NCBI GenBank assembly: GCA_038997165.1
Contig: JAWBAK010000001.1
Location: forward strand, 32,001 to 96,000
Direction of reading: 5' to 3'
DNA length: 64,000 nucleotides
Source of the DNA: Candidatus Aenigmatarchaeota archaeon
Lineage (GTDB): Archaea; Aenigmatarchaeota; Aenigmatarchaeia; CG10238-14; SpSt-28
Shown here: piece by piece, positions 18,558 to 53,610 of the stretch
Numbering within the stretch: position 1 is the first letter of the stretch
Layout of the letters: each line of letters opens with the position of its first letter
The notes under the pieces: model-generated
Databases searched by the model: none
What the model was told of the DNA's origin: nothing
Seen by the model: only the letters and a program-made list of their open reading frames with translations
Made by a program: the position numbers and the translations under genes

Positions 18558-18691
18558 AATAAGAATATGTGATATTGCAACAATTATAATTTTATTTTAA
18601 CAAATCTATTGTTGAATATTTTGAAAGAAGCTATCGAGATTTCTATTTAGATAAAAAATAGCTTGATACACTAAAATTAATGAAATTTAAA

Positions 18692-21982: not shown

Positions 21983-21985
21983 ATT

Positions 21986-25146: not shown

Positions 25147-25156
25147 ATTTTAATTT

Positions 25157-26059: not shown

Positions 26060-29000
26060 ATGTTATTTAACATAAAAGTAAAGCTACAAACAGCAAGTAT
26101 TTTTAGTATAGCTCTATTTCTACTATCTATTTTAGGATATTTAAATTATACTGGATTCTTTGTATTAGAAAATGATATAAACATTTCTGCAGAAATTACA
26201 AATAATTGTGCTGGGGAAGAAAGTACTATAAGAATTTTGTTTGAAAAAGAAATAAATGAAGTAGAAATAAGTTTTTTAAATTTTACAGAGATTTGTTATA
26301 ATTGCAAATATTTTGAGAAAAATATTTTATTACCTGAAGATGAAAAAATAGAAATTAAAGTAAAGTATGAAAATAATGAAAAGTTTTTTGAATTTCCGAT
26401 TTATAAAAAAGAGTTTAGCTTTGAAGTTAATGTTTCAGAAAATATTTTAAAAGTTTTTGGAGAGGCAAAATGCTATAATAGCTTAAATTTAAAAATATAT
26501 TTTGAAAATGAAACAATAAAAGAAAATTATTTAGAAGTTAAAGATGGAAAGTTTTATTTTGAAACTTATTTAGAAAAGGCTGGAAAGTATAATATCGAAA
26601 TTGAAAACATTTCTAAGGAAATTGAATTAAAGCCAAAAATAAAAATAGAAAAAATAGAATTTCCGCAAGAAATTTTTGAGGATTTTGAAATAAAAGTTTA
26701 TGTTAAAGCTTTGTATGGAAATATTTTAAATGCAAGCATTACTCTAAAAAATGTAGAAGAGAATTTTATTTTTAGCGAACCATTGCAAAAAGTTATAGAA
26801 GAGATTAATGAAAATGAGTTCGCAATAATTTCTTGGAATTTAAAAGCTAAAAATTGTGGAAATTATAGCTTAGAGGTTTTTGCTGAAAGTTCTGAAAGTT
26901 ATGATTATAAAAAGATTGATTTGCTAGTTAAATGTTTGGAAAATATTACAAAACAAAATATTAATCTAAATGCTTTTCTCCTTATAGAAAATGTTACTAA
27001 AGGAAAAAAGGAGTTTAAGTTAATTAAAATTTTTGGAAATGTAAGCTTAGATGAAAAGTTGATTACTTCAAATGTAAATGTTAAAATAAAAGATCCAAAA
27101 GGAAATGTTATTTTTGAAAATAAAAGCTATAGCGAAAGTTTTGAGTTTGTTTTTGAATTTTTGCCAAAAATTTTTGGAAAATACTATGCAGAAATTTATG
27201 CTGAAAATGAATATGGAAATATTAGTAAAACTTTGAGTTTTGAAATTACTGGAGAAATTAAAGCTAAATTAAAAATTAAAAAGGAAAAATTCAATTATAA
27301 TTTAGGGGAAAAAGCTACATTTGAAATAGAATTTGAAGAAGAATTAAGTGAAAATATTAAAATAAAAGCTTATTTAGTAGATGCAGAAGGGAATGAAAAA
27401 GAGGTTGAAATTTATGAAAAAGATGGTAAATATTTTGTTGATTTAGATTTTGGAAGAAGTTTTAGGCCAGGTTTGTATAAGTTGAAAGTCAAAACAATTG
27501 AAGAAAAGTTTGTAGAAAAAGGTAAAGGTTTGTTTAAAATTTTAGAAAAGCAAGAAGAAATATTAAGCGAAGAAGAAGTTGAATTTGGGGTTGGATTAGT
27601 TGTTGTTAACACGCCAAAATCAATTTACTTAGTTAATGAAACGGCCAGAATTATAATTGGTGTTGTAAATGAAGTTGGAAAAAGAGTTACTGATGCCAAG
27701 ATTGATATATTAATTCGTTCTCCTTCTGAAAAAATTTATAGATTTTCAACCTCTACAAACTCTGTAATTAATAATGAAGATGGAACTTATGAAGCTTATT
27801 TAAAAGATTTAGATGAAGTTGGTAATTATACTATTTTTGTAGTTGTTAACGCTGATAATTTTATTGTTAATCAAAGTTCTTTTTTTGAAGTTAGAAACTT
27901 TGTTGAAATTGATGTAGAAAGAGAAATGCCAACATTAAGTGATATAGCATCAATATTTGAAGTTAAACTTAAGATTATTCCAAAAATTAACATTTCAAAC
28001 GTTTCAGTAATAGAAACAGTCCCAAAAGGCTTTCCACATATTACAGCTAAAAATGCAAAAATAGAATCTGGAGAAAAAGAATATAAAATTGTTTGGAATT
28101 TCGATAAATTAATTGCAAATGAAAAAATAGAGTTAATATATTCTGTGGAAAATTATTTTGAATCTCCAATAATATTTGAGTTTGGACCACTAATAATAAA
28201 TTCTTCAGAGAGTAATTTTGTTGAGCTAAAAGAATGGAGTTTAATAGTTACTGATGTTATTTATTACGCAATTTTCTGGGAATTTTATAGAGGTTCAGAA
28301 GCTGCACATCATATGGCTTTGTGTAGAGGAATGAATTATACTATAAGATTTTCTATTGTTGATACCGCAATGGACGAAGATATGGCAGCTGATCAACTAG
28401 GATATTTAAGGATAAAATTAGAAAGTGAAGGTAGCTTTCAAACATTACCATACAAAGGCTTTATCTCTCAAAATCCACAAACAGTTGAAGGAACAAAAAA
28501 TGATGCAAATACTTGTTCAGCAACAGGTGGTACTGATCCTTGTGTTTATAACTTGGTATGGCATCTAAATATATCTAAAGACGCACCAGTTGGATTGCAC
28601 ATGCTACAATTGTATTTGTCTTCTACACCGCAGGCACCAAGATATTTAACTGATAGAATTAACATCTATGTAACAGATTGCGATCCTATAGGTTTAGTAA
28701 GAGATGCATTAATTTTAGGTCCACAAGATAGTGTTGAAGTTAATCAAAAAGCTCCAAACTTTTATTCCTATAGAGTTATTGCTGGAAGTTTAGCTAGATT
28801 TGTTTTACCTTTAAAAAATTATGGCTCAGAAACTGTAAATGCCAATGTATCAATAAGAATACTAAGTGGGGAAAATGAAGTTAATTGGTACTTTCCTGAA
28901 GGAAATACACAATCAATAACTCTCTCGCCCAATGAAGAAAAAATTGTTGTATGGAAAACTTGGGTTCCAGATGATGCAAGCGGAACTTATACAGCTTTAT

Positions 29001-32000: not shown

Positions 32001-35000
32001 TTGAAAAAGATGACACAACAATGGAATATGTTAGTGGAAATAATTCTATAGTAATAAGAAATTCTCAACCAGCATTACTTTCTGTTAGAGTTTTTGACTT
32101 AGATGCAAATACTTATGAATTAAATCCGCCTGCATTAGTTACTTTTAAATTATACGATGAAAAATATCCAAATGGATATAAGGTTATTGGAAGTGTTTAT
32201 ACAAATTCTTCTGGATATGCAAATCTATTGCTAAACATAACAGAATGTACTGGTTGGCTTGAAGGAATTCAAAAATGGAGTGCAGAAATAGATGATAATG
32301 ATAACTATTACAAAAAATCTTCCATAGGAAACTTTACAATAGAAATTCAATTACCAGGATGCCAGCCGCAAGTATATATTTATTCGATAGAATTACCAAA
32401 AGAAGCATTTCAATATAAAAATTTCACAATAGTAACATATGTTACTTCTTGGGTAGGAGATGCTGAAGGTGTTTATATAAATATTACTTTACCAGATGGT
32501 TGGTATACTGATGAGCAAACTAAATATTTGGGAAAAATATATGCTAACGAATTCAAAAAAATTTATTGGAATGTTTATGCTAGTACATTTGGAGAGGGAA
32601 AAGCAATTTTCTATATAAACTCAAGTAATGCTGGTTATAAAAGATTGGAAAGTAATAATATTGTCGTTTATAAATTTTCTCAATCAACAATAAACTCGAT
32701 AATTAATATTAATAGTAATGATTTTGAAATTTTAGAATTTGATTGCGAAACTGGTAACTATAGAATTGCAAACTTAACAATAAAAATTTCAGAGAATTCA
32801 AATAATTCAACTCTAAAAATTGAATCTTTTAACTCTTCTAACTGGATAAAAATTGAAAATAATTTAGAAGTTATTAGCAATAGCTTCTATTTTATTCCAA
32901 TATTAGCTAATCAAATTTCAAGCAATTCTGATGGAAAATGTTTAGTAAAAATAACAAATGTTGGAGATAAAAATGTAATTATAGAAAGTGCAACCCTTAC
33001 TTCTTACTATAATGAAACTTTAAAAATAGATGGTATAAAAGTTTTAGTTAATAATTTTGAAGTAGAAAGCATAGATAAAACAGAAAGTTCATTTAATATT
33101 TCTGTTAGAATAGGAAATTCCTTAGATATAAATAAAGATGGTAATTTAACTTTAAAGATTTTGAAAGATGGAAAGGAAATTTATTCGAATTATAAAGAAT
33201 TTACAATAAATGCAAATAGCTTTACTTTTATTAATTTTACTGATATTCAAACAAGCAATTGGGAAGAAGGAATTTATGAAATAATTGCAATACTCAATTC
33301 TTCAAACGAAATTAAATTATTAAAAAGAGAAATAGTTTTTAGTGAAATAAAAATCGATATAACTTCTCCAAAATATCAATGTAATTCTTCAACAGAAAAA
33401 ATTTATTTAGAAATTTATCAGCCATTAGAAGATTATATTTCTTATAACATTTCTTTACAAATTCCAAATAATTGGGATTATAATCCTAAATACATATACT
33501 TAGAGCCAAAAGGTAAAGGATTTTATTTTGCCGAATTTAATTTAACAGCATTTTCTGAAATTGAAGAAGATTATCAAATAATAATTGTAATTAATTACAC
33601 TTACGCAAACAATACAAAAAGTTTAATTAAACCTATAAACATAAAAGTTTCTCCAAACATTCCAATTTTAGAAATTATAAGAGAATTACCAAGTTTAGTT
33701 TCCACATCAATTGTTTTTAAGCCAAGAATAGTTATTCATAACAAAGGTTGTGGGATTGCTAATAATGTAACTATTAAAGAATATATTTCAGCCGGTTGGA
33801 TAGGGGCAAACCCAAGCATTGCAAAGAACGAATATGCTAATGATCCAGAAGTTTCTGATAAAGATGTTGATTTAATTTATTCTGAAACGGACTTAATAAA
33901 TAATATACTAACTTGGCAATTAAGCGATATTAAGCCAAATAAATATGCTGTACTAACATATCAAATAAAAGCTCCTCCAACATTATTTACAGCTGGTTAC
34001 TTAAAGTATAATATAAGCTGGAATAATGAATATTATATTGAAGAAAAAATACCATCAAAAGTTTATACATATAGATATCCAGAAGAATCTCATTTAGAAT
34101 TTGATTTAATTGCTATTCAAACCTTAGAATATCCATGGCCAGAAGTAAGAAGCATTCAAGTTAATAGAGAATATAACTTTACTTTAAAAGTTACAAATAT
34201 TGGAGATATAAATACTAATAATGATTGGACTATTAAGCTTTATATTCCAAAAGAATGCGAAGTTATTAATGTAGAAAATGGAATATGGAATGAAAGTGAA
34301 AGAAAAATAGTTTGGAGTTTACCAAATATTTCAACTTATCAAACATCATATTTTAACTTTACTTTGAAATGTAATGAAGAAAAACAATATGTTTTAATTG
34401 CTGAAGGAATAAGAGATACTAGAAGTAAAGTAAGCTTTGAAAATTCTACATCAATTTATTGCGAATCTTATTCAAAACCTGCATATTGTTATTCTAAATT
34501 AGATTATATCTTAGCAAAACCAACAAATGCTAGATATGAAAAATTATCCAATATAACTATTGAGTTTTTGAATAAATATTCTGGAAATAATTTAACAATT
34601 GGAAATTCTTACATAAAAATTTTTGACGATTTGCTTAATGAGCATATAATATGGCAAGACTATTCTTTCGAAGAGAAAAATGAAATAAAAACAAAGCAGC
34701 TAATAATTTATGAAAATCAAGAAAATTTTGTTAGTAATATAAAAACTTTTGAAATTAGCTCATATTCTGATGCAACAGAAAATACTTATACTAACATTTC
34801 AATACTTAAAATTTATTATACTTGGGATTTAGGAAAATTGTTTAATGAAACTCAAAACCTATTTATAAAATCTAAGGTTTATGATTATACACCTCTATTC
34901 AGAAACGCAAAGCTCTATATTAATGGTAACGATTCTATAAAAGTTGGAGGCTGGGGAGAAAAATTTGAATTTAGTGTAGAGGTTAGAGATAGATTTGGAA

Positions 35001-38000
35001 GAGATGTTATAGTTAGAATGTATCATAGAAAAGTAGGTGGTGAGTGGAGTTTAGTAGATGAAAAAGTTTGCTATTCTTGCTTAGAATGGACTCAATTTAA
35101 TTTTAGCTATGATTACGATTATACAGATATATCAAATTGGGAATTCAAATTTGAAGGAATAAATTCAGATGGTATTAGCGAATATTATGGATTTGTATAT
35201 ACTGTTGAAAAAGATGATGTTGAATTAACACCAATTCAACCACAATGGAACGAAACTGTTTTAAGAGCTTATGGATATAACTTTACGATTTACGCTTTCG
35301 ATATTGATAATAAAACTATTCCATATGTTTTGGAAGATTATAAAGCTTTTGTTGCCTTAGGTCAATATGGAAATAACTTAACTTATAAAATATATACATT
35401 ATCTCCATCAATTAATGAAAGTGGCTACATAATTTTAAAAGTTACTAATACAGAGTTTTGTAATCCAGCAAACAACTATTATTTAGGTCAAAACTACTGG
35501 TTTGGTGGAATTCAAGGATCTGCATATTATAAAGATGTTAATACAAGAATTCCACCATATAATGCATTACCATATGTATTAATAGGAAGCTTATATAATA
35601 ACATAATTTATCCAATTAATGTTAACTTTAGTTTCGAATTAGATACAATTACTTTAAGAGGAGTTGTTTACGACGATTGTGGAAATATAAGAGCTGATGA
35701 AGATATGTATGTATATTTCAATTTAACTAATGGAGATTATAATTATCAATGCATAGCTACAAGAGTTGGAAATGAATTCCAATGTACATTTAATCCAAGA
35801 AGTTTAAATGCACCCTTAGGTTGGTATAACATATCTATGTATTCTTCAAAGCCATTACATACAGATGGTATTTATAGTGTAAATAATGCATTCTTCTTAG
35901 CAAGCATACCAAAAATAATTAATATATCTATTAATCCTTTTGGCGGTCCTTGGGGTTTAAGTCCATTTAATTTTAGTGCATACATTATTGATGAAGATGG
36001 AAATTTTGTTAATATAACTCATTATTTAAGAAAAGTTCCAGAACAATATTTTGTTGCTTATATTGATAATTGCACAAATTGTAATTATTATTTAACTTCT
36101 TTCCTTAGAAATTTTGTTTGTGATTATGAAAATATTGAAGTTGGAGAATGGAGATATAAAATTGAAACTAAGGATGAAGCTGGTTTTTCAAATACATCTC
36201 AAGAAATTTCATTTACAATAGAAAAAGAACCAATTAATATATCGCTATTTGAAAGCGTTCCGTTAATTAACAGAAGTAATGTACCAAATTCGAAAGCATA
36301 CAATTTATCGGTTACTATATTCGATACTATTTTAAATAGAAATGTAACAGAAATACCTTTTGTATATTTAAAATTAGAAGGTCCAGCAACTTTTACATAT
36401 GAAATGGAAAAGGATGAAACTCAAGAAAAATATTATTATGAATTTCTTCCAGGTTGTAGTTATCCTGTAGGAGAATATAAATGGTATTCTTATGTTTTAA
36501 ACGATTATTGCTATCAAAATGCAAGAAGTGAAAATTATACAATAAACATTTATGGAAGCCTTTCTGTTAACATAATTTCTCCAACAGATTATCAGATTAT
36601 TCCAGAAGGACAAAGTGTAACTATAAGATCTAATATTATAGATGATTGTGGTGTTTCAATAACCAATGCTAATGTTTATTATATTTTAAGAAATGAAAGA
36701 ACTCAAGAAGAATTTAGATGTCCAGAAAGTGGGTTTGCAAATTATGATGGAACTTCTTATGTTTGCAATTTTAATACTAGTGGCAAACCTGGAGGAAATT
36801 ATACTATAATAGCTTACGCATCAAGAAATTATTATTGGGATTCCTTAGCTATAAAAGAAAATGCATTCTTTCTAGTAACTCCAGTAAGAATTATAAATGT
36901 TACTATGAATTATGAGCATGATGGTAGCTGGGGTGAAATTCATAATTTTACAGCTCTAATAGATCATTATAATGATGTTATTGTATGTTTATTAGAAAAA
37001 CCAATAGATGCACAAGAATACCAAGTTACTGAATGTAAATATGTAGAAAATCCATCTGGAGGAAAAAAAGTAACATTTAATAGAAGATATACATGTTCAA
37101 ATTTTGTTAGAAGTCAATTCTGGAATTATAAAATTAATGCTACAGAGCCAGGAGTACCTTCTTCTTATAGCGAAAGTCAAGAATATCAACATATGCTACA
37201 AAAAAATGATTTATCGCTAATAATTTATTATAACGATTCTGAAGCAAAAAGATATGGAGATCAAAGGGCAAGATTAATAGTATATGCATATGATTTAGAT
37301 CAAAAACAAGCTGCATATGTTAGTGCATATAATTCACCAAATATTAAATTTAATGTATATAATGGAAGTTCTTTTGTTTTTGTTGGTGCAAACTCAACAA
37401 ATTCTTCTGGATATTCGACTCTATTTTTCAAACCTGATTGTAGCTTTGATGTAGGAATTAAGGAATGGTATGCTTATACAGAGGCTGATGCATGTTATAA
37501 AAATGTAATTTCTGATAGATCAAATATTACAATAGTTGGTCTGTTAAATCCATATTTAGTTTCTCCGATTAATGAAGAATATACAAGATATGCTGAACTA
37601 TACATAAATCTTTCTGCAATTGTTAAAGATGAATGTAATTTAATTACATTTGAAAATGCCACTGTTACATTTATTGCAAAAAGTGTTGCTTTTGGAAGCG
37701 AATACTTATGTTCAGACGTTACTTATTCTAATGGTTATTATAATTGTAGCTTAAATGCAACTTTAATAGAGGAAGGTTGGTATAATGTAAACGTTACAGC
37801 ATCGAACGTTTTATATTATGATGATTACTATTATCTTCAAACAAATTCCTTCAAAATAATTCATAGCTTAGTTCCTCCAGTATTAAGCAATGAGTATGCT
37901 TATCCTGAGCAAGATGGAGGTTGGGGAGAAAGATGGTATTTTAGAGTTAATGTTAGTGATTTGAATGGAGACGATGTAAATATTTATCTTTGGATTTCAA

Positions 38001-44000: not shown

Positions 44001-47000
44001 ATAGTTTCGTTAATAGAGCGTATTACAACACAACCTTATTATCTTTAAGGATATTTGATAAAATTAAGAATACATTTGTAGGTTCTAATGTTAGAGGTTT
44101 TGTAAAAGTTACTAAAGATGGAAGTAATTATGGAGAAGAAATTATAAACTATACCAATTCTTCTGGATATCTAAATGTTTATTTCGATCCAAGCGGAGAT
44201 TATGAAGTAGGTATTCAAAAATGGCTTGGAGGAGTTTTGAACGATAATTGTTATTTAGATAAAAATAGTGAAGAGTATTATTTAACTATCTTAGGAGAAA
44301 TAGCTCTTAGTTATTTTGGAATAGATAGAGAAGATGCTCGATACCTTAAGCCAAAAGATGATATTACAATTACTATAGCGCTTCAAGATGATAGGGGCTC
44401 GTATATAAATGATGCAAACGTTAATATAACTTTAATAGATGAGTTTAATAATAAATATATTTGCCCTATAAGTAATCTTGGCGGTGGAACTTATCAATGT
44501 TCTATTAGCACATCTGTCTTAGCTGCTAGATGGTATAACGTTTCTATATTAGCTAAAAAAGAATATCATTTAGATCTAAATGTTACATTTTCCAACGTAT
44601 TTTTCATAGAAACAGAGCCAAAAGTATATAATATAAGTGCTATTAGCGAGGAAAACTCAAATATTGGTGGATGGGGAGAAACGTGGAAATTCGTTGCAAT
44701 TTTTGAAGATGAAGATTTAGATAGAAATGAAATTTGGATTCAAATCAAGCCAGAAAACTCTGAAAATTGGTATACTGTCAATAGTACTATAATTTCTGGA
44801 ATTAATAAGACAACTATTGAACTTATAGTGAAAGATCCAGGATTACTACAACAATATTTAGGCATATGGAATGCTCAATTCTATTCAATCGATAATAGAG
44901 GATATATAAGTTATAGTGAAATTATTAATTTCACTGTAGAGAAAAATGATGTAAGAATAGAATTAGTTGAAGGAAATAATTCAACTGTATGGCGAAATAA
45001 TACAGAATCTGTAACTTTAAAAGTTAGAATTTACGATTTAGATCAAAAGATATATGTATCTTCTCCTTCAGCAAAAACATATTTCTTTATAACTTATGAT
45101 GGAAATGTTTTTGATGAAGGAAGAGAAACTTATACAGATAATGAAGGTTATTCATACATTGATTTCGATCCAGATTGTAGATATAAGACAGGTGTTCAAA
45201 AATGGGTTGTGAAGATTATTAACGATACTTATTATAAAGATTCTTCATCTCAAAACTTCACATTAAACATTTACTCTACTTTAATTCCGAATGTAACATT
45301 TCCAGATGGACATGCATTTTTAGTTGGGGAATTAGTACCTATAAATGTTAGCCTAAGAGATGAATGTGAATATGTAAATAAAGCAAGTGTAACAATAAGA
45401 GTTAGATATTTAGCAACTACATATACTTGCACTCCAGTAAATAATATTGATAATGGAATTTATAACTGTGTTTGGGACTCTAGTGGAAAAGCATATGGAG
45501 GTTATGATGTAATAGCTATTGCTTCGAAATCTTTCTACGCATCTAATTCAACGACAAAACCTCTAGCATTTTATTTAGCATCAATACCACAGCTTTCTAA
45601 CGCATCTGTTAATCCATTAGTTGGTGGATGGGGAGAAACGTTTACATTTAGCGTAAGATTAACTGATTTAGATAGAAATCAAAATAATGTTACCTTATGG
45701 AAAAGTTATGATAATCAAAGTTGGATTTATGTAACAAGTAAATTAGTTACACCAACATATGCAGGATATTTAGTAAGTTTTGTTGTAACGTTTGATTGCG
45801 AAGATTTATTAAATGGTCCTCTAGTATATTTCAAGTTTTCATCAAAAGATCAATTCGGTTATTATAATGAAAGTGGAATAATTAATGTTACATTTGAGCA
45901 AAACGATGCTTCATTAAGTATTATAGAATATAATTCAAGCGTTAGAAGGCTAGAAAACAATATATCGTATTTCTTACTTAGAGTTTACGATAGCGATAGA
46001 AAAGTTTATCCAAATAATACAGAAGTCACTTTATATATAACTGAAAATGGAAATGACTATACAATAGAAATTATTAATCAAACATATTTAGGAAATGTAT
46101 CTTTCTATTACGATCCTACATGCTCTTCAAACGTAGGAATTCAAAAATGGTATGCGAAAATCACAGATGTTTGTTATAAAAATGTTAATACAACAGAAAG
46201 AGCTTTAACTGTTATTGGACAATTATATATAGACATCTTGAATCCAAAAAACAATCAAATCTTAAACAGAAATACTACTTATTACTTTAATTCTAGCGTA
46301 TATGATGAATGTAATTTAATAATCGATAATGCAAATGTTAGCTGGTTCTTTGGAAATACAAGAATTGGTACTACGTATAACGTTACATATACCATTCCAT
46401 TTAACTATAAGTTAGGATTAGAAAATGTAAAAGCAAACACTTCTAGGATTTATTACGATCCAAATGAAAAGGTTATAAATGTTTATGTTTATGGATTTGC
46501 AGATTTAACAGAAATTTATCCACAAACAAATTCAAAATTCTTAGCTGGAGAAATAGTAAATTTAGTTTGCAGAGTTATGGATAAAAATCTAAATGTACCA
46601 ATCGAAGGATATACAGTATATTTCTATAGAAACGATACATTAATAGGAAGCTCGCTAACAAATTCTAGTGGATATGCAACATTCAGCTGGTCAACAGTTA
46701 ACGAATTAGCTGGATTTGTAGAGATGAAATGTAGGATAACTAACGACGATATTAAATATTATAATGCATCTATTTCAGAAATTTCTTCTTTAATAAGAAT
46801 TAGAAGACCTATAACAATAAGAGAGATTTCTGTTACACCAAATGAAATTTATAGAAATGATACTTTTTCACCAAACATAGCTACTATAAAAGTGAGAACA
46901 TATGATTCAATAATAGCGGCAACAAGTAATGCAATAGTTTATTTCTATAACGAAACAGATTTAATTGGAAACTGCACACCAGATTCTTTTGGCTATTGTT

Positions 47001-50000: not shown

Positions 50001-53000
50001 TTACTTCAGCAACCGGATATCTAAAAATAATCGTTCCTATAAACATTTCTTGGGAAATTTATCCAATTTATGAAGAAATAGAAAGCGTACAGGGAGAAGA
50101 ATTATTTAGAAATATAACAATAAGAAATACAGGAAATTTAAGATTGTTATTGAATTTGTCTTCAATAGCAATAAACGGATCTAACTTTATATATTTTGAA
50201 AATGATAAAAACTTTACTACAATAAGTTTAAGAGTTGGTGAAACAAAAATTATTCCAATAAAAATAGTTGTTCCTATAGTTTACGATTATTCCATTTTTG
50301 AAAACAGAATAGTTTCGCTTAACTTTACAACTCAATCTGGCTTAATAACTAAGAATTCTACATTTATACTTAAAATACATCCATTATTTGTAAAAATAAT
50401 CGAACCTACAGAATCGAATCCACTAAAAAGAGTTGTTGCTGGTGATACTATTTATGCTAAGGTAAATGTAAGTTATGGAAATGAAACTTTAACATCTAAT
50501 GTTAGTTTTCAAATATTTTTATCGAATGAAACATATAGGCATGAAATAGAAAATTTCACAGCTCAATTCTTAGTAATTGAAAAATTATGGTTATTAACAT
50601 TCATAGCTCCTAATTTAACAGAAGGAATAGGATATGATTTAATCGTTAATGCTACATATTTATTAAAAAATGTTTCAAAAATAGATGTAGAACCAAAATC
50701 AATAATTTATCTTGACACTATTCCGCCAGAAATTGAAATAATTATTCCGGCTAGAATTAGAGTTAATACATCAGCTATATTCTGGTTTAATATAACAGAT
50801 TTAGGTGGAGTAGAAAGTGCTAATGCTATAATAATTAAACCAGATAGCAATATTAGTGAATATAATTTAACGTTTGTAAAAAGAATAGGAAGTACATATA
50901 TATACAAATTAGAGTTTAATGAAACAGATCAAATTGGAAGATATGTAATAAATGTAATTGCTTATGATAAAAGTGGTAACAAAGCTGAAAAATCTGCAAT
51001 TTTTGATGTTAGGCCGCTAATTTTCTTTAGTGGTATTGCAAAAGATGAAGAAAGCATAGATTATGTTCCATTAAACGTTACTTTCGAATTATATCCAGCA
51101 GGAAGGTATGAAATGTTATACAGAATAGTTCCTGACGAAGAAGGATATTATAATGAAACAATAGAAGCGATGTATTACGATATTGTATATAAATTCTTTA
51201 ATGAAAGCTTAGTAATCTCTAATATTGGATTGTTTGATGATGTATTTAATCCGATAGTATTAGGAATACCGAGAGAAGTTATTTTACCAAGAGAAGCAAT
51301 TAAAGGTTATGTTTTAGATAGTATTCTTAAATCATCCTCTACCTTAATATTCGATATAAGCAATTTAGATGCTAGAAAGCATGATTTAAGATTATTAGGA
51401 ATTTATCATTGCGCAAACTGGACAAGATATATTGGCTGCAATTCAACTTGGATTAGACTAAACTCTATAGTTTCTTTACAAAGCTTAAAAGTTTATGCAA
51501 CAAACATAAGCGAAATTAAGGGTGCGTATATTTTAGCTCAATATGTTTGTGGAAATGGAATATGTGAAGATAGATTTGGTGAAAGTAATGCAATTTGTCC
51601 ATTAGATTGTCCAGCTGCTGGAGCTCCAGGAATTCCAGCTCCAGGAATTGGAGCACCTGGAATAGGGGCTGGAGTAGGAATTCCTGCAGTTCCAGCTGCT
51701 CCTGGAGTAGGAATAGGAGTTGGTGCTGGTGCACCAACAATAACCATTCCACCCTATGAAATATTTACTAAGGAAATTAGTGTAACATTAAAGCCAAAAG
51801 AACATATAATTGTAAGTGTTGATATAGGAAACAATAGAAATAAAGATATTAAAGTAAAGTTTAAGCCAGAAGGATTAATTTGGGAATTTGTTCAATTAGA
51901 AGCAAACGAAATTGAAATTAAAGCAAGTCAAAGAGGCACGATAAAAATGAAAATATTTGCTCCAGAAGAAAAAATGCCAGGAATCTATACAGGAGATTTG
52001 GTTGTTTATATTGAAAATGAAACATATAGAATTCCAGTAACAATTAAAATAGAGTTACCACCAGAACCTTTGCTTGACGTAATAATAAATGTATTAAGAA
52101 AAACAATAGAACCCAACGAAACTTTAAAGGTATTTGTTAGAGTAGTCAATATGGGTCAAACAGAAAAAGTAGAAGATATTGTTTTAACTTACATAATAAA
52201 AGATTTATTAACTGGAGAATTATACAATGTTTATAAAGAAACTATAGCTGTAGAGACAGCAACTTCATTTACAAGAGAAATTACCTTACCAGAAGGAATT
52301 AAATTAGATAGAAAATATCTAATAGAGGTTAATGCAAGTTATTGGTATGGAAGAAAATATGCATATGCAGCAGATACTTTTGAAGTAGTTTCATTACCCA
52401 TACCTTTAAAAATACTTAGAAGCCTATTACTAAATCCAGTAACTTATATTGTTACTTTTGGAATTGCACCAACCGCTTATTTAGCTCAAAAAGCACTACA
52501 AGCCTATAAATTAAGAAAATTAAAAGAAAAGAGATATGCATTACCAATAGATTTTGATAAATTACCAAAAGCAGGTCCTAATAGTATTGAAGTTGGAAAA
52601 ATTGCAGAAACGGATGTAAAGGCATATTTTGATATGAAGCAATTAATAATGCATACTATTGCAGCTGGTGGTACTGGAAGTGGTAAAACTATAAGTGCTA
52701 TGGTTGTTGCAGAAGAATTATTAAAAAGAAATATTCCAGTAATAGTTTTTGATCCTACAGCACAATGGACTGGCTTCATAAAACCAAATAAAGATCCTAC
52801 TATGCAAGCCTTTTATAAACAATTTGGATTAAAACCAGAAGATGCTAGAGGATTCAAAACAAATATAATTGTTGTAGAAGATGTGGATATGCCACTAGAT
52901 ATTAAAAAGTATATGAATCCAGGAGAAATAACTGTTTTTGTATTAAATAGATTAAAAGCAGATGAATTAGATAAATTTATTAGAAGAAGTATTGAAGCTG

Positions 53001-53608
53001 TTTTTGAAATGAAACCACCAGAATCGAAAGAACTCAAACTATTATTAATATACGATGAAATTCATAGAACTTTACCAAAATATGGAGGTAAAGGTGGTTA
53101 TATAGCTATTGAAAGGGGAGCAAGAGAATTTAGAAAATGGGGAATTGGATTATTCTTAATATCTCAAGTATTGTTAGACTTTAAAGGAGCAATTAGAGCA
53201 AATGTTGCTACAGAAATTCAATTAAGAACAAAATATGAAGGAGATATAAATAGAGTAAAGCAAAAATATGGAACAGATTATGCAAGCAAAGTTACTAAAT
53301 TGACAATTGGTACTGGAATTGTTCAAAATCCTGAATATAACAATGGTAAGCCTTGGATAATTCAATTTAGACCTATTTTACATTCAACTTTCGCATTATC
53401 AAAAGAAGAGCTAGATACTTATATGAATTTAAGAAAGAAGTTGGAAGCATTTGAAAAAGAAGTTGAAAATCTTAAGGCAAGAGGAATTGATACTTTCGAT
53501 ATAGAAAATGAAATAAAACTTGCTTGGGATAGATTGAAGCAAGGAATGTTTAGAATGGTTGAAACATATATTGAAAGTATTGAAACAAATCTCAAACGTT
53601 ATAAATAA
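26060..53608 (+). CDS. Giant surface protein (9182 aa) with C-terminal HerA/DUF87-like P-loop ATPase
   Basis: Uninterrupted 27.5-kb ORF with an N-terminal signal helix, repeat array and probable TM near 52420-52490. ATPase motifs: MHTIAAGGTGSGKT, VIVFDP, LLIYDEIHR, REFRKWGIGLFLISQ. Confidence 0.92.
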   Translation: MLFNIKVKLQTASIFSIALFLLSILGYLNYTGFFVLENDINISAEITNNCAGEESTIRILFEKEINEVEISFLNFTEICYNCKYFEKNILLPEDEKIEIKVKYENNEKFFEFPIYKKEFSFEVNVSENILKVFGEAKCYNSLNLKIYFENETIKENYLEVKDGKFYFETYLEKAGKYNIEIENISKEIELKPKIKIEKIEFPQEIFEDFEIKVYVKALYGNILNASITLKNVEENFIFSEPLQKVIEEINENEFAIISWNLKAKNCGNYSLEVFAESSESYDYKKIDLLVKCLENITKQNINLNAFLLIENVTKGKKEFKLIKIFGNVSLDEKLITSNVNVKIKDPKGNVIFENKSYSESFEFVFEFLPKIFGKYYAEIYAENEYGNISKTLSFEITGEIKAKLKIKKEKFNYNLGEKATFEIEFEEELSENIKIKAYLVDAEGNEKEVEIYEKDGKYFVDLDFGRSFRPGLYKLKVKTIEEKFVEKGKGLFKILEKQEEILSEEEVEFGVGLVVVNTPKSIYLVNETARIIIGVVNEVGKRVTDAKIDILIRSPSEKIYRFSTSTNSVINNEDGTYEAYLKDLDEVGNYTIFVVVNADNFIVNQSSFFEVRNFVEIDVEREMPTLSDIASIFEVKLKIIPKINISNVSVIETVPKGFPHITAKNAKIESGEKEYKIVWNFDKLIANEKIELIYSVENYFESPIIFEFGPLIINSSESNFVELKEWSLIVTDVIYYAIFWEFYRGSEAAHHMALCRGMNYTIRFSIVDTAMDEDMAADQLGYLRIKLESEGSFQTLPYKGFISQNPQTVEGTKNDANTCSATGGTDPCVYNLVWHLNISKDAPVGLHMLQLYLSSTPQAPRYLTDRINIYVTDCDPIGLVRDALILGPQDSVEVNQKAPNFYSYRVIAGSLARFVLPLKNYGSETVNANVSIRILSGENEVNWYFPEGNTQSITLSPNEEKIVVWKTWVPDDASGTYTALFTIQAKDKTITIKRDFNVYTFPIVIYQASPDWIIARRGGIKYRTVSICNYGDYNLTANITEINSMQGGTSVTVSPSANISTATRIEWWQRSIPTSRCFIYNVTYRNPSTTEIDPGYEEFVVMVTYFNPSNNLIETLSDIFSTIQIDANDKPLLNVRLFPTLIIANDTQVSLVISNNGRNVGINIGQIRLYIPAGFIPYQFSLTPDQGYPIGSAEEGWIVTWTPYSTNSYLYSIDATSSVTLTFRVNVSDIRNFSPGGKIFTVTISGYPTATNTGTLRMLHFPTAKFAVVREGPLLKTVRYYNTTPTDEQLNFPLFFACGNFSTKLQVFNKGNLPAYNFRINETKSDILKTHPGDLIFYGFNPSNPYLEQSKLISWDGGINFIATGKDNAINFTYSIFVPYQTNGTFSFQALALNNTFSFFDEEYIISISCGASLSIDQIRIRKGEYPEPTIYVNDIFNISANIYNDGPGNASNVIVWINYTNVTQIRGLENLKIYNSNGEESNIIYLGNILPKETKIAFNDYYFTVNTSGVSPGIIRFCINANATENSTIVSSCRDITINAPPALIELENPIAISKETGSSFGSWSFNFTFNVSVRVSNSENDVQICAWFSKTGMEPFKLIGCDIYPAPGNNIGSWRNYSFEYSPSCEDIGNPVFIKFNATNFAGSSNSTTLPFTITKSKIVFDEILGNNTETRRGKMPTILGVRVKDINGTYISNLPLRFYVSLNEIVFDAGNTVYTNESGYANYNFLAVCTPKYLVGYQKWKAELKDNECYFDNSTENYFDLRVLVTGDILLYIVRPDGSTNYTQEDTITFLGYVTDDCGDPLTASVIFFANHSIESFECSDVTQVGSNAYTCDWHTEITTPMGWYNVSMYVEKEFHYSNWSIKAKDPGLFYLEPIYKLEDPQAYPIREGWGYKNWNFSVFASSGDSENEFDVNIYLGDLWPPAKPCEECINITPKTCFNCYKQLVVFLRNFTAYEIGTWYYRFSLGPTSTTQVKYVIVEKDDTTMEYVSGNNSIVIRNSQPALLSVRVFDLDANTYELNPPALVTFKLYDEKYPNGYKVIGSVYTNSSGYANLLLNITECTGWLEGIQKWSAEIDDNDNYYKKSSIGNFTIEIQLPGCQPQVYIYSIELPKEAFQYKNFTIVTYVTSWVGDAEGVYINITLPDGWYTDEQTKYLGKIYANEFKKIYWNVYASTFGEGKAIFYINSSNAGYKRLESNNIVVYKFSQSTINSIININSNDFEILEFDCETGNYRIANLTIKISENSNNSTLKIESFNSSNWIKIENNLEVISNSFYFIPILANQISSNSDGKCLVKITNVGDKNVIIESATLTSYYNETLKIDGIKVLVNNFEVESIDKTESSFNISVRIGNSLDINKDGNLTLKILKDGKEIYSNYKEFTINANSFTFINFTDIQTSNWEEGIYEIIAILNSSNEIKLLKREIVFSEIKIDITSPKYQCNSSTEKIYLEIYQPLEDYISYNISLQIPNNWDYNPKYIYLEPKGKGFYFAEFNLTAFSEIEEDYQIIIVINYTYANNTKSLIKPINIKVSPNIPILEIIRELPSLVSTSIVFKPRIVIHNKGCGIANNVTIKEYISAGWIGANPSIAKNEYANDPEVSDKDVDLIYSETDLINNILTWQLSDIKPNKYAVLTYQIKAPPTLFTAGYLKYNISWNNEYYIEEKIPSKVYTYRYPEESHLEFDLIAIQTLEYPWPEVRSIQVNREYNFTLKVTNIGDINTNNDWTIKLYIPKECEVINVENGIWNESERKIVWSLPNISTYQTSYFNFTLKCNEEKQYVLIAEGIRDTRSKVSFENSTSIYCESYSKPAYCYSKLDYILAKPTNARYEKLSNITIEFLNKYSGNNLTIGNSYIKIFDDLLNEHIIWQDYSFEEKNEIKTKQLIIYENQENFVSNIKTFEISSYSDATENTYTNISILKIYYTWDLGKLFNETQNLFIKSKVYDYTPLFRNAKLYINGNDSIKVGGWGEKFEFSVEVRDRFGRDVIVRMYHRKVGGEWSLVDEKVCYSCLEWTQFNFSYDYDYTDISNWEFKFEGINSDGISEYYGFVYTVEKDDVELTPIQPQWNETVLRAYGYNFTIYAFDIDNKTIPYVLEDYKAFVALGQYGNNLTYKIYTLSPSINESGYIILKVTNTEFCNPANNYYLGQNYWFGGIQGSAYYKDVNTRIPPYNALPYVLIGSLYNNIIYPINVNFSFELDTITLRGVVYDDCGNIRADEDMYVYFNLTNGDYNYQCIATRVGNEFQCTFNPRSLNAPLGWYNISMYSSKPLHTDGIYSVNNAFFLASIPKIINISINPFGGPWGLSPFNFSAYIIDEDGNFVNITHYLRKVPEQYFVAYIDNCTNCNYYLTSFLRNFVCDYENIEVGEWRYKIETKDEAGFSNTSQEISFTIEKEPINISLFESVPLINRSNVPNSKAYNLSVTIFDTILNRNVTEIPFVYLKLEGPATFTYEMEKDETQEKYYYEFLPGCSYPVGEYKWYSYVLNDYCYQNARSENYTINIYGSLSVNIISPTDYQIIPEGQSVTIRSNIIDDCGVSITNANVYYILRNERTQEEFRCPESGFANYDGTSYVCNFNTSGKPGGNYTIIAYASRNYYWDSLAIKENAFFLVTPVRIINVTMNYEHDGSWGEIHNFTALIDHYNDVIVCLLEKPIDAQEYQVTECKYVENPSGGKKVTFNRRYTCSNFVRSQFWNYKINATEPGVPSSYSESQEYQHMLQKNDLSLIIYYNDSEAKRYGDQRARLIVYAYDLDQKQAAYVSAYNSPNIKFNVYNGSSFVFVGANSTNSSGYSTLFFKPDCSFDVGIKEWYAYTEADACYKNVISDRSNITIVGLLNPYLVSPINEEYTRYAELYINLSAIVKDECNLITFENATVTFIAKSVAFGSEYLCSDVTYSNGYYNCSLNATLIEEGWYNVNVTASNVLYYDDYYYLQTNSFKIIHSLVPPVLSNEYAYPEQDGGWGERWYFRVNVSDLNGDDVNIYLWISRDRSNWELVNQTICYNCGYERTIELSYKGFTCEDYLNRPIYFKFNATDAYNSTDRNPIALYLDKNDLRIEYYSGNESKIIRNVGGILQARIYDLDFGDYADSQVALYVTTDRNNYKLVAINNSLNSIATLFFNPTCEFDVGLQYWKIGSYNDACYKNVNSSDFNLYVIGNIDANITYPKGDKFLRGSNVTLNISIFDECSENIPLENTKINITMISNRDKSIRYCTEIIELGNGLYSCTFNSSNFTPNYYNVTLNISKELYTNKTKTFSNVFWIETNPILFNLRAIPNVLGWGETLTIKVNFTDEDLDTHTINVYLIKSDYSRVRTRNILNVQGINVEASTQFTFTSADIGDWFVIVNVTDDFGIAEINTSITIEKDDTIIEYISGNNSIVHRIHNTTTFELRAIDIDNPSNNIYYQPAGFWVTSDYVNYIYIGTVYTGNNGYFNITFDPDCRFETGIQKWKGGLLENPNWKTSNSSEYFVIIVSDLSGNIIQPDGNILLRGVDSLNIRATVSDECKYVNGADVYFVVGNENINITCDNVINDNLGNYTCSLSSSTLEILPYGWNNITMFARKDFYENELVITKQNAFYLADKPKIEDVYVTSATWRWGTVFEFVGKLYDLDPDNKTVYLWISRDGSNWRLINQTTYYGPTPPGGVDIKLSFIPTCNDVGNWYFKFNVTDTSGYSSETFGYQFEILKRPAVISAISGLNKIIQREGSVSTTLRIKAIDAIDGANINNAKIKFITINKTGHEVTYETWTNQSGIASYIFDPDCSYGANKTYWKAILYNNSCYEDTVSPNFDIYIYGKLYNNLVAPSQGSTFPSRTTFNISYYITSDCSDEGLIENANAEIKVYDPLNQEIICTPIIEENGYYNCTFDTTGKRAGVYSITLNSTKQYYFGSYTNYPNWFSIYNSPPTYSNISVSPSIAPWTSILNFSVYVSDADNDVVRCSLEIKKGYSYIEVATMEINGNGLCSFLISDFSCDDIGTNYFRFSLSDGYNDIVYTEEQSFELTKSPVVLNLISGNGTSVRRNIASTNLRISVFDLVKNSLVGTSILPEAYVKFNITFDSLNYINLDEVSTTSGYAEVMFSPDCSFSAGTQYWYAYISENDVCYEFNQTNNFEVYVIGSLNPSIIEPTNLFKVYKGNNVSIRANIQDDCNENVSVDFIQINPISRITGQMFNCIVSEENIGIYNCSFETVDKPAGAYDIRVNVSKQYHVSAIYTESNAFFIETYPSLTNPSVTPIVEGWGKTRTFSITASDEDRDALYVCLYYRPKGSEDWSLASCRTKPSGIASQTLTFSRTFSCDNLLGQESIEYEFFFNVTDDDNNIAESEIKNFTLERDDISVSLAESYVEYNRSSTEKASLIISIRDLDANSYATRAVNATLYVTRIPGTTNYFIDNVYINRNPVLGNITFYFPQQNKCLYKVGPQKWYVSINSSCYKPANSPIGTLNITSLPLNSTLIYPIGEYFPQGYNIPITVEVYDDCEKVDGASLSIEVINPNNETIECYPVSNLGNGGYRCSFSDTYLLGSYTIKTQANKQYYPEGYINEFPNAFFITSAPFIDSTEVYASRTSSEEGGWGDTWFFKIRVYDEDQSFIEFEKLNISLYIDFGNGYEYISSQICEAPECASLKEFVFTHTFDCSKIGDNKKFKFIVRDFFNNTVESAEGYFNILPDEPQITILRKPTRINREGNFADMFNISVIDVDRGVPANATLTLFITTDSSNFNFYVNLNSVNGIATYSFDPDCRFSAGIQYFKVSTNDSCYKLKTSDIDEFEIIGSLQNYIIYPYRNSDILIEFGKIENITLNVKDECENDIENANVNLNAIWPNNYIENIPVYEENSGIYNATWNLSRKIGGYYSFVFNSSKEYYNSNSTLFLNWIYLNNTPPIIENISVNPLVGGWGETFTFSADVFDIQRDDVVCKLYVYTGKNTWLYKGSVTIKDGVGKCIINVSDFDCSDINVTSLNMFKFEISDVNNVFNTTEIFAPAIGKNDVEIYYVFGNNSFVNRAYYNTTLLSLRIFDKIKNTFVGSNVRGFVKVTKDGSNYGEEIINYTNSSGYLNVYFDPSGDYEVGIQKWLGGVLNDNCYLDKNSEEYYLTILGEIALSYFGIDREDARYLKPKDDITITIALQDDRGSYINDANVNITLIDEFNNKYICPISNLGGGTYQCSISTSVLAARWYNVSILAKKEYHLDLNVTFSNVFFIETEPKVYNISAISEENSNIGGWGETWKFVAIFEDEDLDRNEIWIQIKPENSENWYTVNSTIISGINKTTIELIVKDPGLLQQYLGIWNAQFYSIDNRGYISYSEIINFTVEKNDVRIELVEGNNSTVWRNNTESVTLKVRIYDLDQKIYVSSPSAKTYFFITYDGNVFDEGRETYTDNEGYSYIDFDPDCRYKTGVQKWVVKIINDTYYKDSSSQNFTLNIYSTLIPNVTFPDGHAFLVGELVPINVSLRDECEYVNKASVTIRVRYLATTYTCTPVNNIDNGIYNCVWDSSGKAYGGYDVIAIASKSFYASNSTTKPLAFYLASIPQLSNASVNPLVGGWGETFTFSVRLTDLDRNQNNVTLWKSYDNQSWIYVTSKLVTPTYAGYLVSFVVTFDCEDLLNGPLVYFKFSSKDQFGYYNESGIINVTFEQNDASLSIIEYNSSVRRLENNISYFLLRVYDSDRKVYPNNTEVTLYITENGNDYTIEIINQTYLGNVSFYYDPTCSSNVGIQKWYAKITDVCYKNVNTTERALTVIGQLYIDILNPKNNQILNRNTTYYFNSSVYDECNLIIDNANVSWFFGNTRIGTTYNVTYTIPFNYKLGLENVKANTSRIYYDPNEKVINVYVYGFADLTEIYPQTNSKFLAGEIVNLVCRVMDKNLNVPIEGYTVYFYRNDTLIGSSLTNSSGYATFSWSTVNELAGFVEMKCRITNDDIKYYNASISEISSLIRIRRPITIREISVTPNEIYRNDTFSPNIATIKVRTYDSIIAATSNAIVYFYNETDLIGNCTPDSFGYCSITYNPPNETNVGIKYIYINATPTIEGRENSDTYITSFIAKGKLYIQILEPSNSSIFAKSSTVNIRTYVTSENGENIPALYPNSRVNITNSSSIIGFAYPTGEANIYAGSFNLLDQKTGWLNISTIINIPYYDSAVDSIWILVTGLAGVEFTFPSNNQEITYPSTIYPTCLVKDLDSEIGIENYPVEFYYKTSSSDWIYVSTEITNSSGLANISFTTPSKGEFYFKCVISDNATLVYSAIYNESIVRILVKDLTPPEILETSISPTYDIEANRDFVNISAVVSDNIGISEVWAMIGLPNGSSVRVNMNKISGNLTYGFYSAIYIPPIGGEYNVTVFAKDLPPEANVNSSFAGIFYVFGKTNLELNVFPENIIADGITIYNGYPFEIIINVSNLGPATAYDLNITLFDDSGRIEYSTNIITISNISRYINISQMIMARVKEATPAQTINIFVNLSWRNPDLTYNYTVKRIFVIVAENPKLEIKPEYINEVVEHDTIKIIGSVNITNIGNVPITEILLSTDLNTPFYMYCLNCSISLFPTYQGFLAMGQSFISEITVSIPAGQDPGSYWSRILVSSKEAATVYSIINITVPINNSWIIDKEISGIILAPLGTKKEIDKINFSNIGNVNVTISIYLSGRGAELVRVENRSSFSFVLPKQKERLVSFSYDIPKTKNEGLYDVRVVMVSTDGYPNLREFIFTLNVTDIPPIIENVTFSKTDFEINETINVTAKIYDNIELDKAWINISYPNNTYEIKLLKKLQDDIFYENISSRIAGEIKISICANDTKGLTSCTEEFIIRAHSKTILDVLSEKIVFENVTLRNSQTKTVILNLTNLGFARAFNVSIKGEDEIFDITLTNVSLILAREIIPVIVNITALNGTYSGNYSAKINITWINLDGSIESKISLIPIEVLPVHLIEIENKTEYIKNNEERIVNISLSAVGNVNETNITLICSANCELFKIDLNETIDNIALGETIEIPIRVFVPSDLESGEYMVELKAYNEFTSATGYLKIIVPINISWEIYPIYEEIESVQGEELFRNITIRNTGNLRLLLNLSSIAINGSNFIYFENDKNFTTISLRVGETKIIPIKIVVPIVYDYSIFENRIVSLNFTTQSGLITKNSTFILKIHPLFVKIIEPTESNPLKRVVAGDTIYAKVNVSYGNETLTSNVSFQIFLSNETYRHEIENFTAQFLVIEKLWLLTFIAPNLTEGIGYDLIVNATYLLKNVSKIDVEPKSIIYLDTIPPEIEIIIPARIRVNTSAIFWFNITDLGGVESANAIIIKPDSNISEYNLTFVKRIGSTYIYKLEFNETDQIGRYVINVIAYDKSGNKAEKSAIFDVRPLIFFSGIAKDEESIDYVPLNVTFELYPAGRYEMLYRIVPDEEGYYNETIEAMYYDIVYKFFNESLVISNIGLFDDVFNPIVLGIPREVILPREAIKGYVLDSILKSSSTLIFDISNLDARKHDLRLLGIYHCANWTRYIGCNSTWIRLNSIVSLQSLKVYATNISEIKGAYILAQYVCGNGICEDRFGESNAICPLDCPAAGAPGIPAPGIGAPGIGAGVGIPAVPAAPGVGIGVGAGAPTITIPPYEIFTKEISVTLKPKEHIIVSVDIGNNRNKDIKVKFKPEGLIWEFVQLEANEIEIKASQRGTIKMKIFAPEEKMPGIYTGDLVVYIENETYRIPVTIKIELPPEPLLDVIINVLRKTIEPNETLKVFVRVVNMGQTEKVEDIVLTYIIKDLLTGELYNVYKETIAVETATSFTREITLPEGIKLDRKYLIEVNASYWYGRKYAYAADTFEVVSLPIPLKILRSLLLNPVTYIVTFGIAPTAYLAQKALQAYKLRKLKEKRYALPIDFDKLPKAGPNSIEVGKIAETDVKAYFDMKQLIMHTIAAGGTGSGKTISAMVVAEELLKRNIPVIVFDPTAQWTGFIKPNKDPTMQAFYKQFGLKPEDARGFKTNIIVVEDVDMPLDIKKYMNPGEITVFVLNRLKADELDKFIRRSIEAVFEMKPPESKELKLLLIYDEIHRTLPKYGGKGGYIAIERGAREFRKWGIGLFLISQVLLDFKGAIRANVATEIQLRTKYEGDINRVKQKYGTDYASKVTKLTIGTGIVQNPEYNNGKPWIIQFRPILHSTFALSKEELDTYMNLRKKLEAFEKEVENLKARGIDTFDIENEIKLAWDRLKQGMFRMVETYIESIETNLKRYK
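30690..46480 (+). repeat. Degenerate protein-level repeat array of about 14 units of ~325 aa in the giant ORF
   Basis: GGWGE-like motif near 30745, 31730, 34945, 35942, 36920, 37915, 38868, 39815, 40775, 41729, 42724, 43691, 44665 and 45621 (approximate). Spacing is about 950-1000 nt except for one ~3.2-kb gap. Confidence 0.85.
43675..45653 (+). repeat. 47-bp identical direct repeat (43675-43721 and 45607-45653)
   Basis: TGTTAATCCATTAGTTGGTGGATGGGGAGAAACGTTTACATTTAGCG in both copies; a 21-bp core also occurs at 44664-44684. Confidence 0.9.
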
Positions 53609-53610
53609 TT

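Follow-up and report, generated by a model that had tools for sequence, protein, structure and literature searches.

Can a single archaeal gene join an extracellular part of thousands of residues to a cytoplasmic, motor-like ATPase, and what would such a protein do? The question is raised by a 64,000-nucleotide (nt) stretch of DNA (the window; positions 32,001 to 96,000 of contig JAWBAK010000001.1, assembly GCA_038997165.1) from a Candidatus Aenigmatarchaeota archaeon. An earlier note, made from the letters of the window, had described one very long gene in it (the giant gene) as encoding a surface protein fused in frame, through one transmembrane (TM) helix, to a cytoplasmic HerA/VirB4-like ATPase. 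We found that this fusion is real and conserved. The giant protein is probably an Aenigmatarchaeota (DPANN) member of the giant membrane-anchored proteins published as SPEARE, the assignment being made by their described layout; in the same explanation, which we judge jointly with the assignment, the protein would most likely act as a host-contact fibre, with a cytoplasmic ATPase ring to bundle it. For DPANN archaea contact with a host is a necessity, the molecules that make the contact are hardly known, and this giant family is the most conspicuous candidate: the giant gene takes up 4.2% of the 651,930 bases of its genome, a second copy lies in the same genome, and species-representative archaeal genomes hold at least 604 loci.

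The length of the frame is not a product of chance. ORF translation found no internal stop, and at the base composition of the giant gene a stop is expected in 9.1% of codons, so that the log10 probability of 9,182 open codons is about -381. The host genome (four contigs, 24.5% G+C, rated 94.5% complete) is a metagenome-type assembly that contains N runs, and the G+C content of the window varies from 17 to 32% in 2-kb windows. The nature of this assembly would favour an artefact, in which a misassembly joined two genes or repeats inflated the length, as would the fact that contigs of two other runs stop at 52423-52440, within the TM-coding stretch. We compared contigs from four runs, belonging to four different hot-spring studies, with positions 35000-54900. 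A contig of 8,379 nt from an independent study (run X10) was gapless over 47330-54900 and crosses both the ectodomain/TM/ATPase junction and the end of the gene, and no alternative join was listed where the other two contigs stop. All indels listed in the other-run contigs keep the frame: a 3-nt in-frame deletion at 51614, in the Gly/Ala/Pro-rich linker, is present in three other assemblies or runs, and two runs each carry a 1-nt deletion and a 1-nt insertion paired within 37108-37117. The longest DNA repeat within the giant gene is at most 52 nt, the same fusion is found in a paralogue and in hundreds of homologues, and the DNA of the giant gene was found again in hot-spring metagenomes of nine studies. 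An artefact is close to excluded, and the stop or misassembly ahead of the ATPase that the earlier note had allowed for was not seen. The contig ends at 52423-52440 and the deletion at 51614 may mark hot spots of strain-level variation at the membrane-proximal base.

The distribution of residues along the protein is consistent with a single crossing of the membrane. All N-x-S/T sequons and all Cys residues (Table 1) lie before the membrane segment, on its N-terminal side; beyond aa 8830 (352 residues) there is no sequon, and the last 379 residues hold no Cys. The membrane segment, LLLNPVTYIVTFGIAPTAYLA, is only moderately hydrophobic (the third highest peak of the giant protein), and it is followed by a basic cluster, as the positive-inside rule predicts for the cytoplasmic side. 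By these features the giant protein is a type-I membrane glycoprotein, with a signal helix, ~8,750 residues outside the cell, one TM helix and a cytoplasmic tail. The signal helix, the sequon- and Cys-rich modules, the hydrophobic segment, the basic cluster and the ATPase motifs all lie where the earlier note had placed them.

The same topology is a property of the family. We analyzed 150 proteins (the query and 149 matches, one 356-aa fragment being excluded as too short). A hydrophobic peak, located at a median of 78 aa ahead of Walker A, was 1.6 or more in 142 of the 150 and 1.4 or more in 148, and never fell below 1.2, and net charge after the TM helix was positive in 149. Sequon density was 5.2 per 100 aa outside and 0.22 inside. 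A TM helix between the two domains, the absence of which the earlier note would have counted against the fusion, is thus the rule in this set. The N-termini of full-length homologues are ordinary and signal-like. We considered a pilin-like N-terminus (KLQTASIF, which resembles the pilin-like genes upstream of the giant gene) as a family trait and rejected it, for the N-termini of the other 82 full-length homologues listed are signal-like. A motif, (N/K)(Y/F)(T/I)G(F/Y)(A/V/F), recurs directly after the N-terminal helix in many full-length members; it is present as NYTGFF in the giant protein (aa 29-34, 26144-26161) and as NFTGFFV in the 1908-aa surface protein encoded downstream (aa ~23-29 of the product of 54840+), and it may be a conserved signal-processing or sorting site.

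Homologues were collected by a full HMMER scan of aa 8781-9182 against 1.84 billion representatives, which returned 1151 clusters (E <= 1e-3); 368 of them reach E <= 1e-30. The best 150 homologues are 356 to 7,665 aa long and match at or near their C-terminus, with Walker A ~313 aa from the C-terminus in most of the 40 for which positions were given. A pattern scan of one genome per prokaryotic species confirmed at least 604 loci, and DNA reaching up to 10 kb upstream was fetched for the best 80 of them. At 72 of the 80 loci no stop interrupts the frame between the ATPase and the upstream end of this DNA, and most of the proteins are long fusions; the stand-alone homologues that the earlier note had envisaged are not the rule. 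At the other eight (L021, L076, L081, L055, L030, L050, L036 and L027) the frame ends 41 to 2,380 residues before the ATPase match. Locus L021, where it closes after 41 residues, may be a split form, in which the gene for the TM helix and ATPase is separate from that of the ectodomain. By record title, the best 80 loci of at least 604 comprise Aenigmatarchaeota (27), Micrarchaeota (4), Nanoarchaeota (3), unlabelled archaea (40), and one each of Nanohalarchaeota, Woesearchaeota, Parvarchaeota, Altiarchaeota, Haiyanarchaeum and Heimdallarchaeota. Among the matches listed, the closest locus is in an Aenigmatarchaeota metagenome-assembled genome (89% identity).

The second copy in the same genome (G000:C1:408819-418751) shares the plan. 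Its last 400 residues are 49% identical to the tail of the giant protein, a TM helix lies at the equivalent place, and 118 sequons precede the helix and none follows it. The frame of this paralogue begins inside an N run (an assembly gap), so the full protein must be longer than 3,278 aa. Beside the gap is a tandem Gly-rich repeat (GGSGGISTGIYLLNSFNNTFFSNSIF...). The paralogue locus, which extends to 421419, also encodes a coiled-coil partner (348 aa, 30% identity) and a MinD-like protein (252 aa, 33% identity), on the opposite strand.

The earlier note knew of no characterised protein with this architecture. The layout is already in print. In Hamm et al. (2019; PMC6642349) the name SPEARE stands for proteins of Nanohaloarchaeota that reach 8,553 aa, lie mainly outside the cytoplasm and have a TM helix towards the C-terminus; the cytoplasmic region is the most conserved part and was interpreted as a type III restriction enzyme. 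The same paper reports a laminin-G domain in all SPEARE ectodomains, detection of a SPEARE protein by proteomics, and SPEARE-like sequences in Woesearchaeota, Aenigmarchaeota, Micrarchaeota and Altiarchaeales. A signal peptide, Ig (immunoglobulin) repeats, a TM helix, a VirB4/TraG-like ATPase and a coiled coil make up the layout given by Reva et al. (2023; PMC10266531); they found no nuclease in the tail, proposed that the proteins are secretion 'straws', and noted that in nanohaloarchaea the gene after the giant gene encodes a second VirB4/TraG ATPase. Members named in these sources are NAR1_1133 of Ca. Nanohaloarchaeum antarcticus (5,998 aa), the Ca. Nanopetramus SG9 protein (8,553 aa) and SVXNc_0300 (9,409 aa). 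Nothing specific on the Aenigmatarchaeota case was found in the literature, and no functional study of SPEARE was found among the 30 titles listed. Term searches of two electron cryo-tomography (cryo-ET) papers on DPANN contact sites (PMC11329633, PMC11420986) gave no mention of SPEARE, HerA or giant proteins.

Which ATPase is carried by the tail? A profile hidden Markov model search of the C-terminus with Pfam matched the DUF87/HerA central domain (E 1.6e-10) and HerA_C (E 2.2e-5). A sequence search of the PDB with phmmer returned HerA proteins only, down to E 0.01, with 4d2i at E 2.6e-5. The AlphaFold2 model of the tail, built from a 21-sequence alignment, had a mean pLDDT (predicted local distance difference test) of 91.9, and the first-ranked Foldseek match of this model was Sulfolobus HerA 4d2i (E 1.3e-13). 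VIA-align gave the highest Z to the same structure (26.6; root-mean-square deviation 2.8 over 254 residues), followed by DndH-C (24.4), VirB4 4ag5 (23.9), TrwB (20.3), FtsK (18.3) and TcpA (18.0). Because of these Pfam, PDB, Foldseek and VIA-align matches, we assign the tail to the HerA/VirB4 branch of the FtsK-HerA superfamily; it is nearest to HerA and is not HerA proper. NCBIfam matches fall far below their cut-offs: CedD 43.7 bits vs. 600 (E 1.5e-11), HerA_Thermprot 31.4 vs. 800, CedB 21.4 vs. 700 (E 8.2e-5) and SXT_TraD 22.3 vs. 366; those to CedD, HerA and CedB cover parts of the domain only.

The fold also bears on the type III restriction enzyme of Hamm et al. (2019; PMC6642349), which would degrade imported DNA. 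Pfam does give a weak match of the tail to ResIII (E 0.0019, 18.6 bits), which lies below the cut-off of 22.5, as does the match to T4SS-DNA_transf (17.0 vs. 20.1). ResIII, however, is the helicase/P-loop part, no nuclease domain was found with Pfam or NCBIfam, and the fold is that of HerA/VirB4; the interpretation was also rejected on re-analysis by Reva et al. (PMC10266531). A restriction nuclease tail is close to excluded.

The catalytic motifs look intact and are kept family-wide. The unfiltered alignment of 21 sequences shows no variation in the Walker A Lys, the Walker B Asp-Glu pair or the RE(F)RKWG block. In the larger set of fetched matches, 196 of 197 have both Walker A and RExRKWG; these two motifs served as the filter for the 197-sequence set, and for them only the pass rate is informative. 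The Walker B Asp is present in 196 and the Glu in 193 of the 197 aligned sequences, query included. The REFRKWGIGLFLISQ block aligns with the AREGRKFGVGLTIVSQ block of Sulfolobus HerA and presumably holds the arginine finger. Walker A and Walker B are 127 aa apart (~130 aa in the earlier note).

The extracellular part gave only weak Pfam matches, all to Ig-like families (Big_1, Big_7, DUF11, Filamin, MG2 and NPCBM_assoc). Single-module BLAST and alignment identified supermodules of ~320 aa, with conserved Cys and 21-31% identity to the reference copy. Of the many ectodomain regions we modelled one, a supermodule, which is predicted to fold as three Ig/FnIII-like (fibronectin type III) beta-sandwich beads (pLDDT 88.0); its best Foldseek matches were FnIII/Ig tandems (contactin FN1-3, the Ig-like region of PrgB, titin and SiiE). 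The outside part is, by these results, largely a tandem of Ig/FnIII-like beads, including 13 three-bead supermodules. Laminin-G, protease and WD40/PQQ domains were not detected in the giant protein (Pfam, E <= 0.01); some homologues carry PF02210/PF13385. An ectodomain of this kind would serve as a host-contact fibre, and if it has ~80 beads of ~4 nm each and is extended, the fibre would be of the order of 300 nm. The modelled beads of the repeated module are solid and give no hint of a conduit.

The giant gene does not stand alone. Its neighbours were surveyed at the 66 related loci whose downstream DNA extends for 2.5 kb or more: a homologue of the coiled-coil partner follows on the same strand at 66 of 66, a second surface protein at 51 and a MinD-like gene at 25. 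In the window, the start of the 1908-aa gene overlaps the stop of the partner gene by 4 nt, and the 1908-aa protein ends in a short, cytoplasmic, coiled-coil/SHOCT-like tail with the same motif as the 410-aa partner. The giant gene is part of a conserved cassette, in which it is translationally coupled to the coiled-coil and second surface protein genes, with the gene of the MinD-like ATPase after them. The earlier note had spoken of a one-gene device, a description that gives way to this cassette. The partner has no P-loop. A complex prediction of the tail with the 410-aa partner scored 0.01 (mark 0.32) and has no bearing either way.

Both the beads and the neighbourhood count against the secretion 'straw' of Reva et al. 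(2023), in which the giant protein belongs to a type IV secretion system (T4SS) and the VirB4-like domain drives effectors into the host by way of the ectodomain, inside or alongside it. This model was put forward in PMC10266531, and the tail does resemble VirB4 (Z 23.9) and TrwB (Z 20.3) in fold. HerA, however, outranks VirB4 in both sequence and fold, the tail has no VirB4 N-terminal domain by Pfam, a scan of 17 neighbouring proteins gave no other T4SS family, the model of the repeated module shows three beta-sandwich beads, and the second VirB4/TraG gene that Reva et al. took as support is absent from the present locus. We consider the straw very improbable as an account of the giant protein; a hollow passage through Ig-like beads is, from the model, unlikely.

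What, then, would the ATPase do at the base of the fibre? HerA, VirB4, TrwB and FtsK form rings. By analogy with them, the tail domains would form a ring under the membrane, which we regard as quite probable. Such a ring would bundle several chains and spend ATP at the fibre base; positioning or holding the assembly would fall to the coiled-coil partner, the SHOCT-like tails and the MinD-like ATPase. TrwB/VirD4, TcpA and the CedB/CedD relatives have an N-terminal membrane anchor followed by the motor domain. Because of this TM-then-motor topology of TrwB/VirD4 and CedB, we favour as the likeliest job, tentatively and at less than even confidence, the threading of a polymer, either DNA or unfolded protein, towards the membrane or away from it where cell and host meet.

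Alternatively, the attachment fibres themselves may be what the motor acts on: the ATPase ring, together with the coiled-coil partner and the MinD-like ATPase, would build, cluster, tension or take apart the fibres, and no separate substrate would cross the membrane. The partner is linked in every case and is a long cytoplasmic coiled coil, its SHOCT-like motifs are found again in the tail of the second surface protein, the cassette is accompanied by a MinD-type positioning ATPase, the neighbourhood holds no channel, nuclease or secretion component, and the ectodomain models as solid Ig-like beads, all of which are in keeping with a self-acting motor. The closest solved relatives of the tail, on the other hand, namely HerA, VirB4, TrwB and FtsK, are polymer translocases or secretion ATPases, and we know of no precedent for a HerA-type ring that acts as a scaffold alone. 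We consider the self-acting motor possible and somewhat doubtful. Polymer threading could also be given a more specific form, in which the four-gene cassette builds a coupling-protein/Ced-like hexameric gate under a six-stranded glycoprotein fibre of ~300 nm and moves DNA or protein between the DPANN cell and its host. If true, archaea would have a further kind of machine for transfer between cells, one that is neither T4SS nor Ced and is new; we hold this specific form to be rather unlikely.

Several observations weigh against our preferred explanation, the SPEARE-type host-contact fibre bundled by an ATPase ring. Among the proteins of giant length listed by word search none has the length of a published SPEARE protein, and no open-frame length listed equals a published one either. 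The Pfam scan given above found no laminin-G domain in the giant protein, whereas all SPEARE ectodomains have one according to PMC6642349. The next gene encodes a coiled-coil protein without a P-loop rather than a second VirB4/TraG ATPase, and the loci are not identical. T4SS, Ced and nuclease components are all missing among the 17 neighbouring proteins scanned. The NCBIfam matches to CedD, HerA and CedB are partial (21-44 bits vs. 600-800), and one TM helix per chain makes a poor pore.

Table 1. Position of the features of the giant gene and of its cassette in the window
Feature	Position	Strand	Details and basis
Whole giant gene	26060..53608	+	9182 aa, unbroken frame
N-terminal hydrophobic helix, aa 7-36	26078..26167	+	Sec-type signal or signal anchor, then NYTGFF; Kyte-Doolittle 19-residue mean 1.86
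Ectodomain	26168..52423	+	~8,750 residues, 313 sequons, 132 Cys; sequon/Cys counts, weak Pfam matches
Thirteenth supermodule copy, aa 1565-1859	30752-31636	+	Single-module BLAST, alignment
Array of twelve ~320-aa supermodules, aa 2964-6761	34949..46342	+	Single-module BLAST, alignment
Gly/Ala/Pro-rich linker	51611..51733	+	After a Cys-rich knot (CGNGICEDRF...CPLDCP) and before membrane-proximal Ig-like domains; sequence
TM helix LLLNPVTYIVTFGIAPTAYLA, aa 8789-8809	52424..52486	+	19-residue hydrophobicity 1.48
Basic cluster KLRKLKEKR	52508..52534	+	Cytoplasmic side (positive-inside); sequence after the TM helix
P-loop ATPase core	52577..53401	+	HerA/VirB4 branch of the FtsK-HerA superfamily; Pfam, model, fold matches
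Walker A GGTGSGKT, aa 8870	52667..52690	+	Lys 8876; motif, invariant in 21/21 of the alignment
Walker B region IYDEIHR, aa 8997	53048..53068	+	Asp 8999 and Glu 9000; motif
REFRKWGIGLFLISQ block, aa 9022	53123..53167	+	Alignment with the AREGRKFGVGLTIVSQ block of Sulfolobus HerA
C-terminal helical hairpin / coiled coil	53402..53605	+	Model helices 335-360, 366-380 and 384-401; AlphaFold2 model
Cytoplasmic coiled-coil partner, 410 aa	53611..54843	+	Starts 2 nt past the stop of the giant gene; core motif ESIGELRS; three GxISxExY (SHOCT-like) motifs
Second surface protein, 1908 aa	54840..60566	+	Signal helix, 83 sequons, TM aa 1810-1845
MinD/ParA-type ATPase	60600..61367	+	Archaeal MinD TIGR01969, 151.8 bits, below the cut-off of 201.75

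Further genes of the window lie around the cassette. After the MinD-like gene, positions 61585-63486 encode a 633-aa all-coiled-coil protein, for which the 80 loci gave a single homologue at the equivalent place, that of the closest relative, L005. Directly upstream of the giant gene, six genes encode proteins of 128-659 aa with a hydrophobic N-terminal helix that is preceded by a pilin-like motif (e.g. MKIQSALEYL, KNQFSLEYF, KLQITSIEF); they and their neighbours lie at 20787-25897 (+) and 16747-20167 (-). Two FlaJ/T2SSF-like genes and the gene of a FlaI-like ATPase adjoin them on the other strand, and the cluster looks like a type-IV-pilus-like locus beside the cassette. Four of the upstream proteins had no match in the 80 loci, the fetched DNA of which holds little or no sequence upstream of the giant gene. 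Another surface protein is encoded within 5945-13055 (1902 aa; signal helix, 85 sequons, TM aa 1783-1816, coiled-coil tail); it has a 97-aa stretch in common with the giant protein (39% identity). The gene of a KaiC-like ATPase (11656-12390) follows it immediately, and a second KaiC-like gene (12387-13055, -) converges. Here too a surface protein is accompanied by a cytoplasmic ATPase, but the two are separate genes.

How does the giant protein compare with known systems? The three-bead supermodule resembles in fold the giant Ig-repeat adhesins of bacteria (SiiE, the Ig-like region of PrgB). To our knowledge, adhesins of this type are secreted or wall-anchored and carry no cytoplasmic motor.

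HerA of Sulfolobus (4d2i), a helicase of HerA-NurA end resection, is the best sequence and fold match of the ATPase core, and the Walker A, Walker B and RE(G/F)RK(F/W)G blocks are common to both. The tail differs in that (i) it has no HAS-barrel (no Pfam match) and has the TM helix and a juxtamembrane helix in its place; (ii) its insert between Walker A and Walker B is shorter; and (iii) the neighbours of the giant gene encode a coiled-coil protein, a surface protein and a MinD-like ATPase, and none is NurA. A canonical NurA-HerA operon lies elsewhere in the genome (G000:C1 ~167898-170197), with a HerA that has a HAS-barrel (E 2.9e-13), a full DUF87 and HerA_C; the DNA-repair HerA is thus kept apart from the tail of the surface protein.

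VirB4 has a core fold alike (Z 23.9), but its N-terminal domain, CagE_TrbE_VirB, is not among the Pfam matches of the tail, and the 17 neighbours include no T4SS family. More broadly, type IV coupling proteins, VirB4 and CedB-CedD are akin to the tail by fold (VirB4, TrwB, TcpA) and by the weak NCBIfam matches to CedD and CedB, the scores of which are far below the cut-offs. The giant protein has ~8,750 extracellular residues where these proteins have few, one TM helix per chain, and no other T4SS or Ced components nearby.

The comparison is closest with SPEARE. The two have in common giant size, an N-terminal signal, a mostly extracellular chain of adhesion-type repeats, a single TM helix on the C-terminal side, a conserved cytoplasmic P-loop ATPase followed by a coiled coil, and a large share of a tiny DPANN genome; the present host differs in being a thermophilic member of the Aenigmatarchaeota with 24.5% G+C. 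The tail is 57% identical to that of NOQ55827.1, a 7378-aa protein of a 'Nanohaloarchaea archaeon', and 28 of the 42 genomes in the phylum to which a record titled Nanohalarchaeota belongs have full-length matches in large frames. To the published description of SPEARE, our analysis adds (i) that the tail is closest to HerA rather than VirB4; (ii) that it has no HAS-barrel; (iii) that its catalytic motifs are kept family-wide; and (iv) that a coiled-coil partner is its constant companion and that a second surface protein and a MinD-like ATPase are frequent ones. Together they delimit a minimal set that biochemistry and cryo-ET can test.

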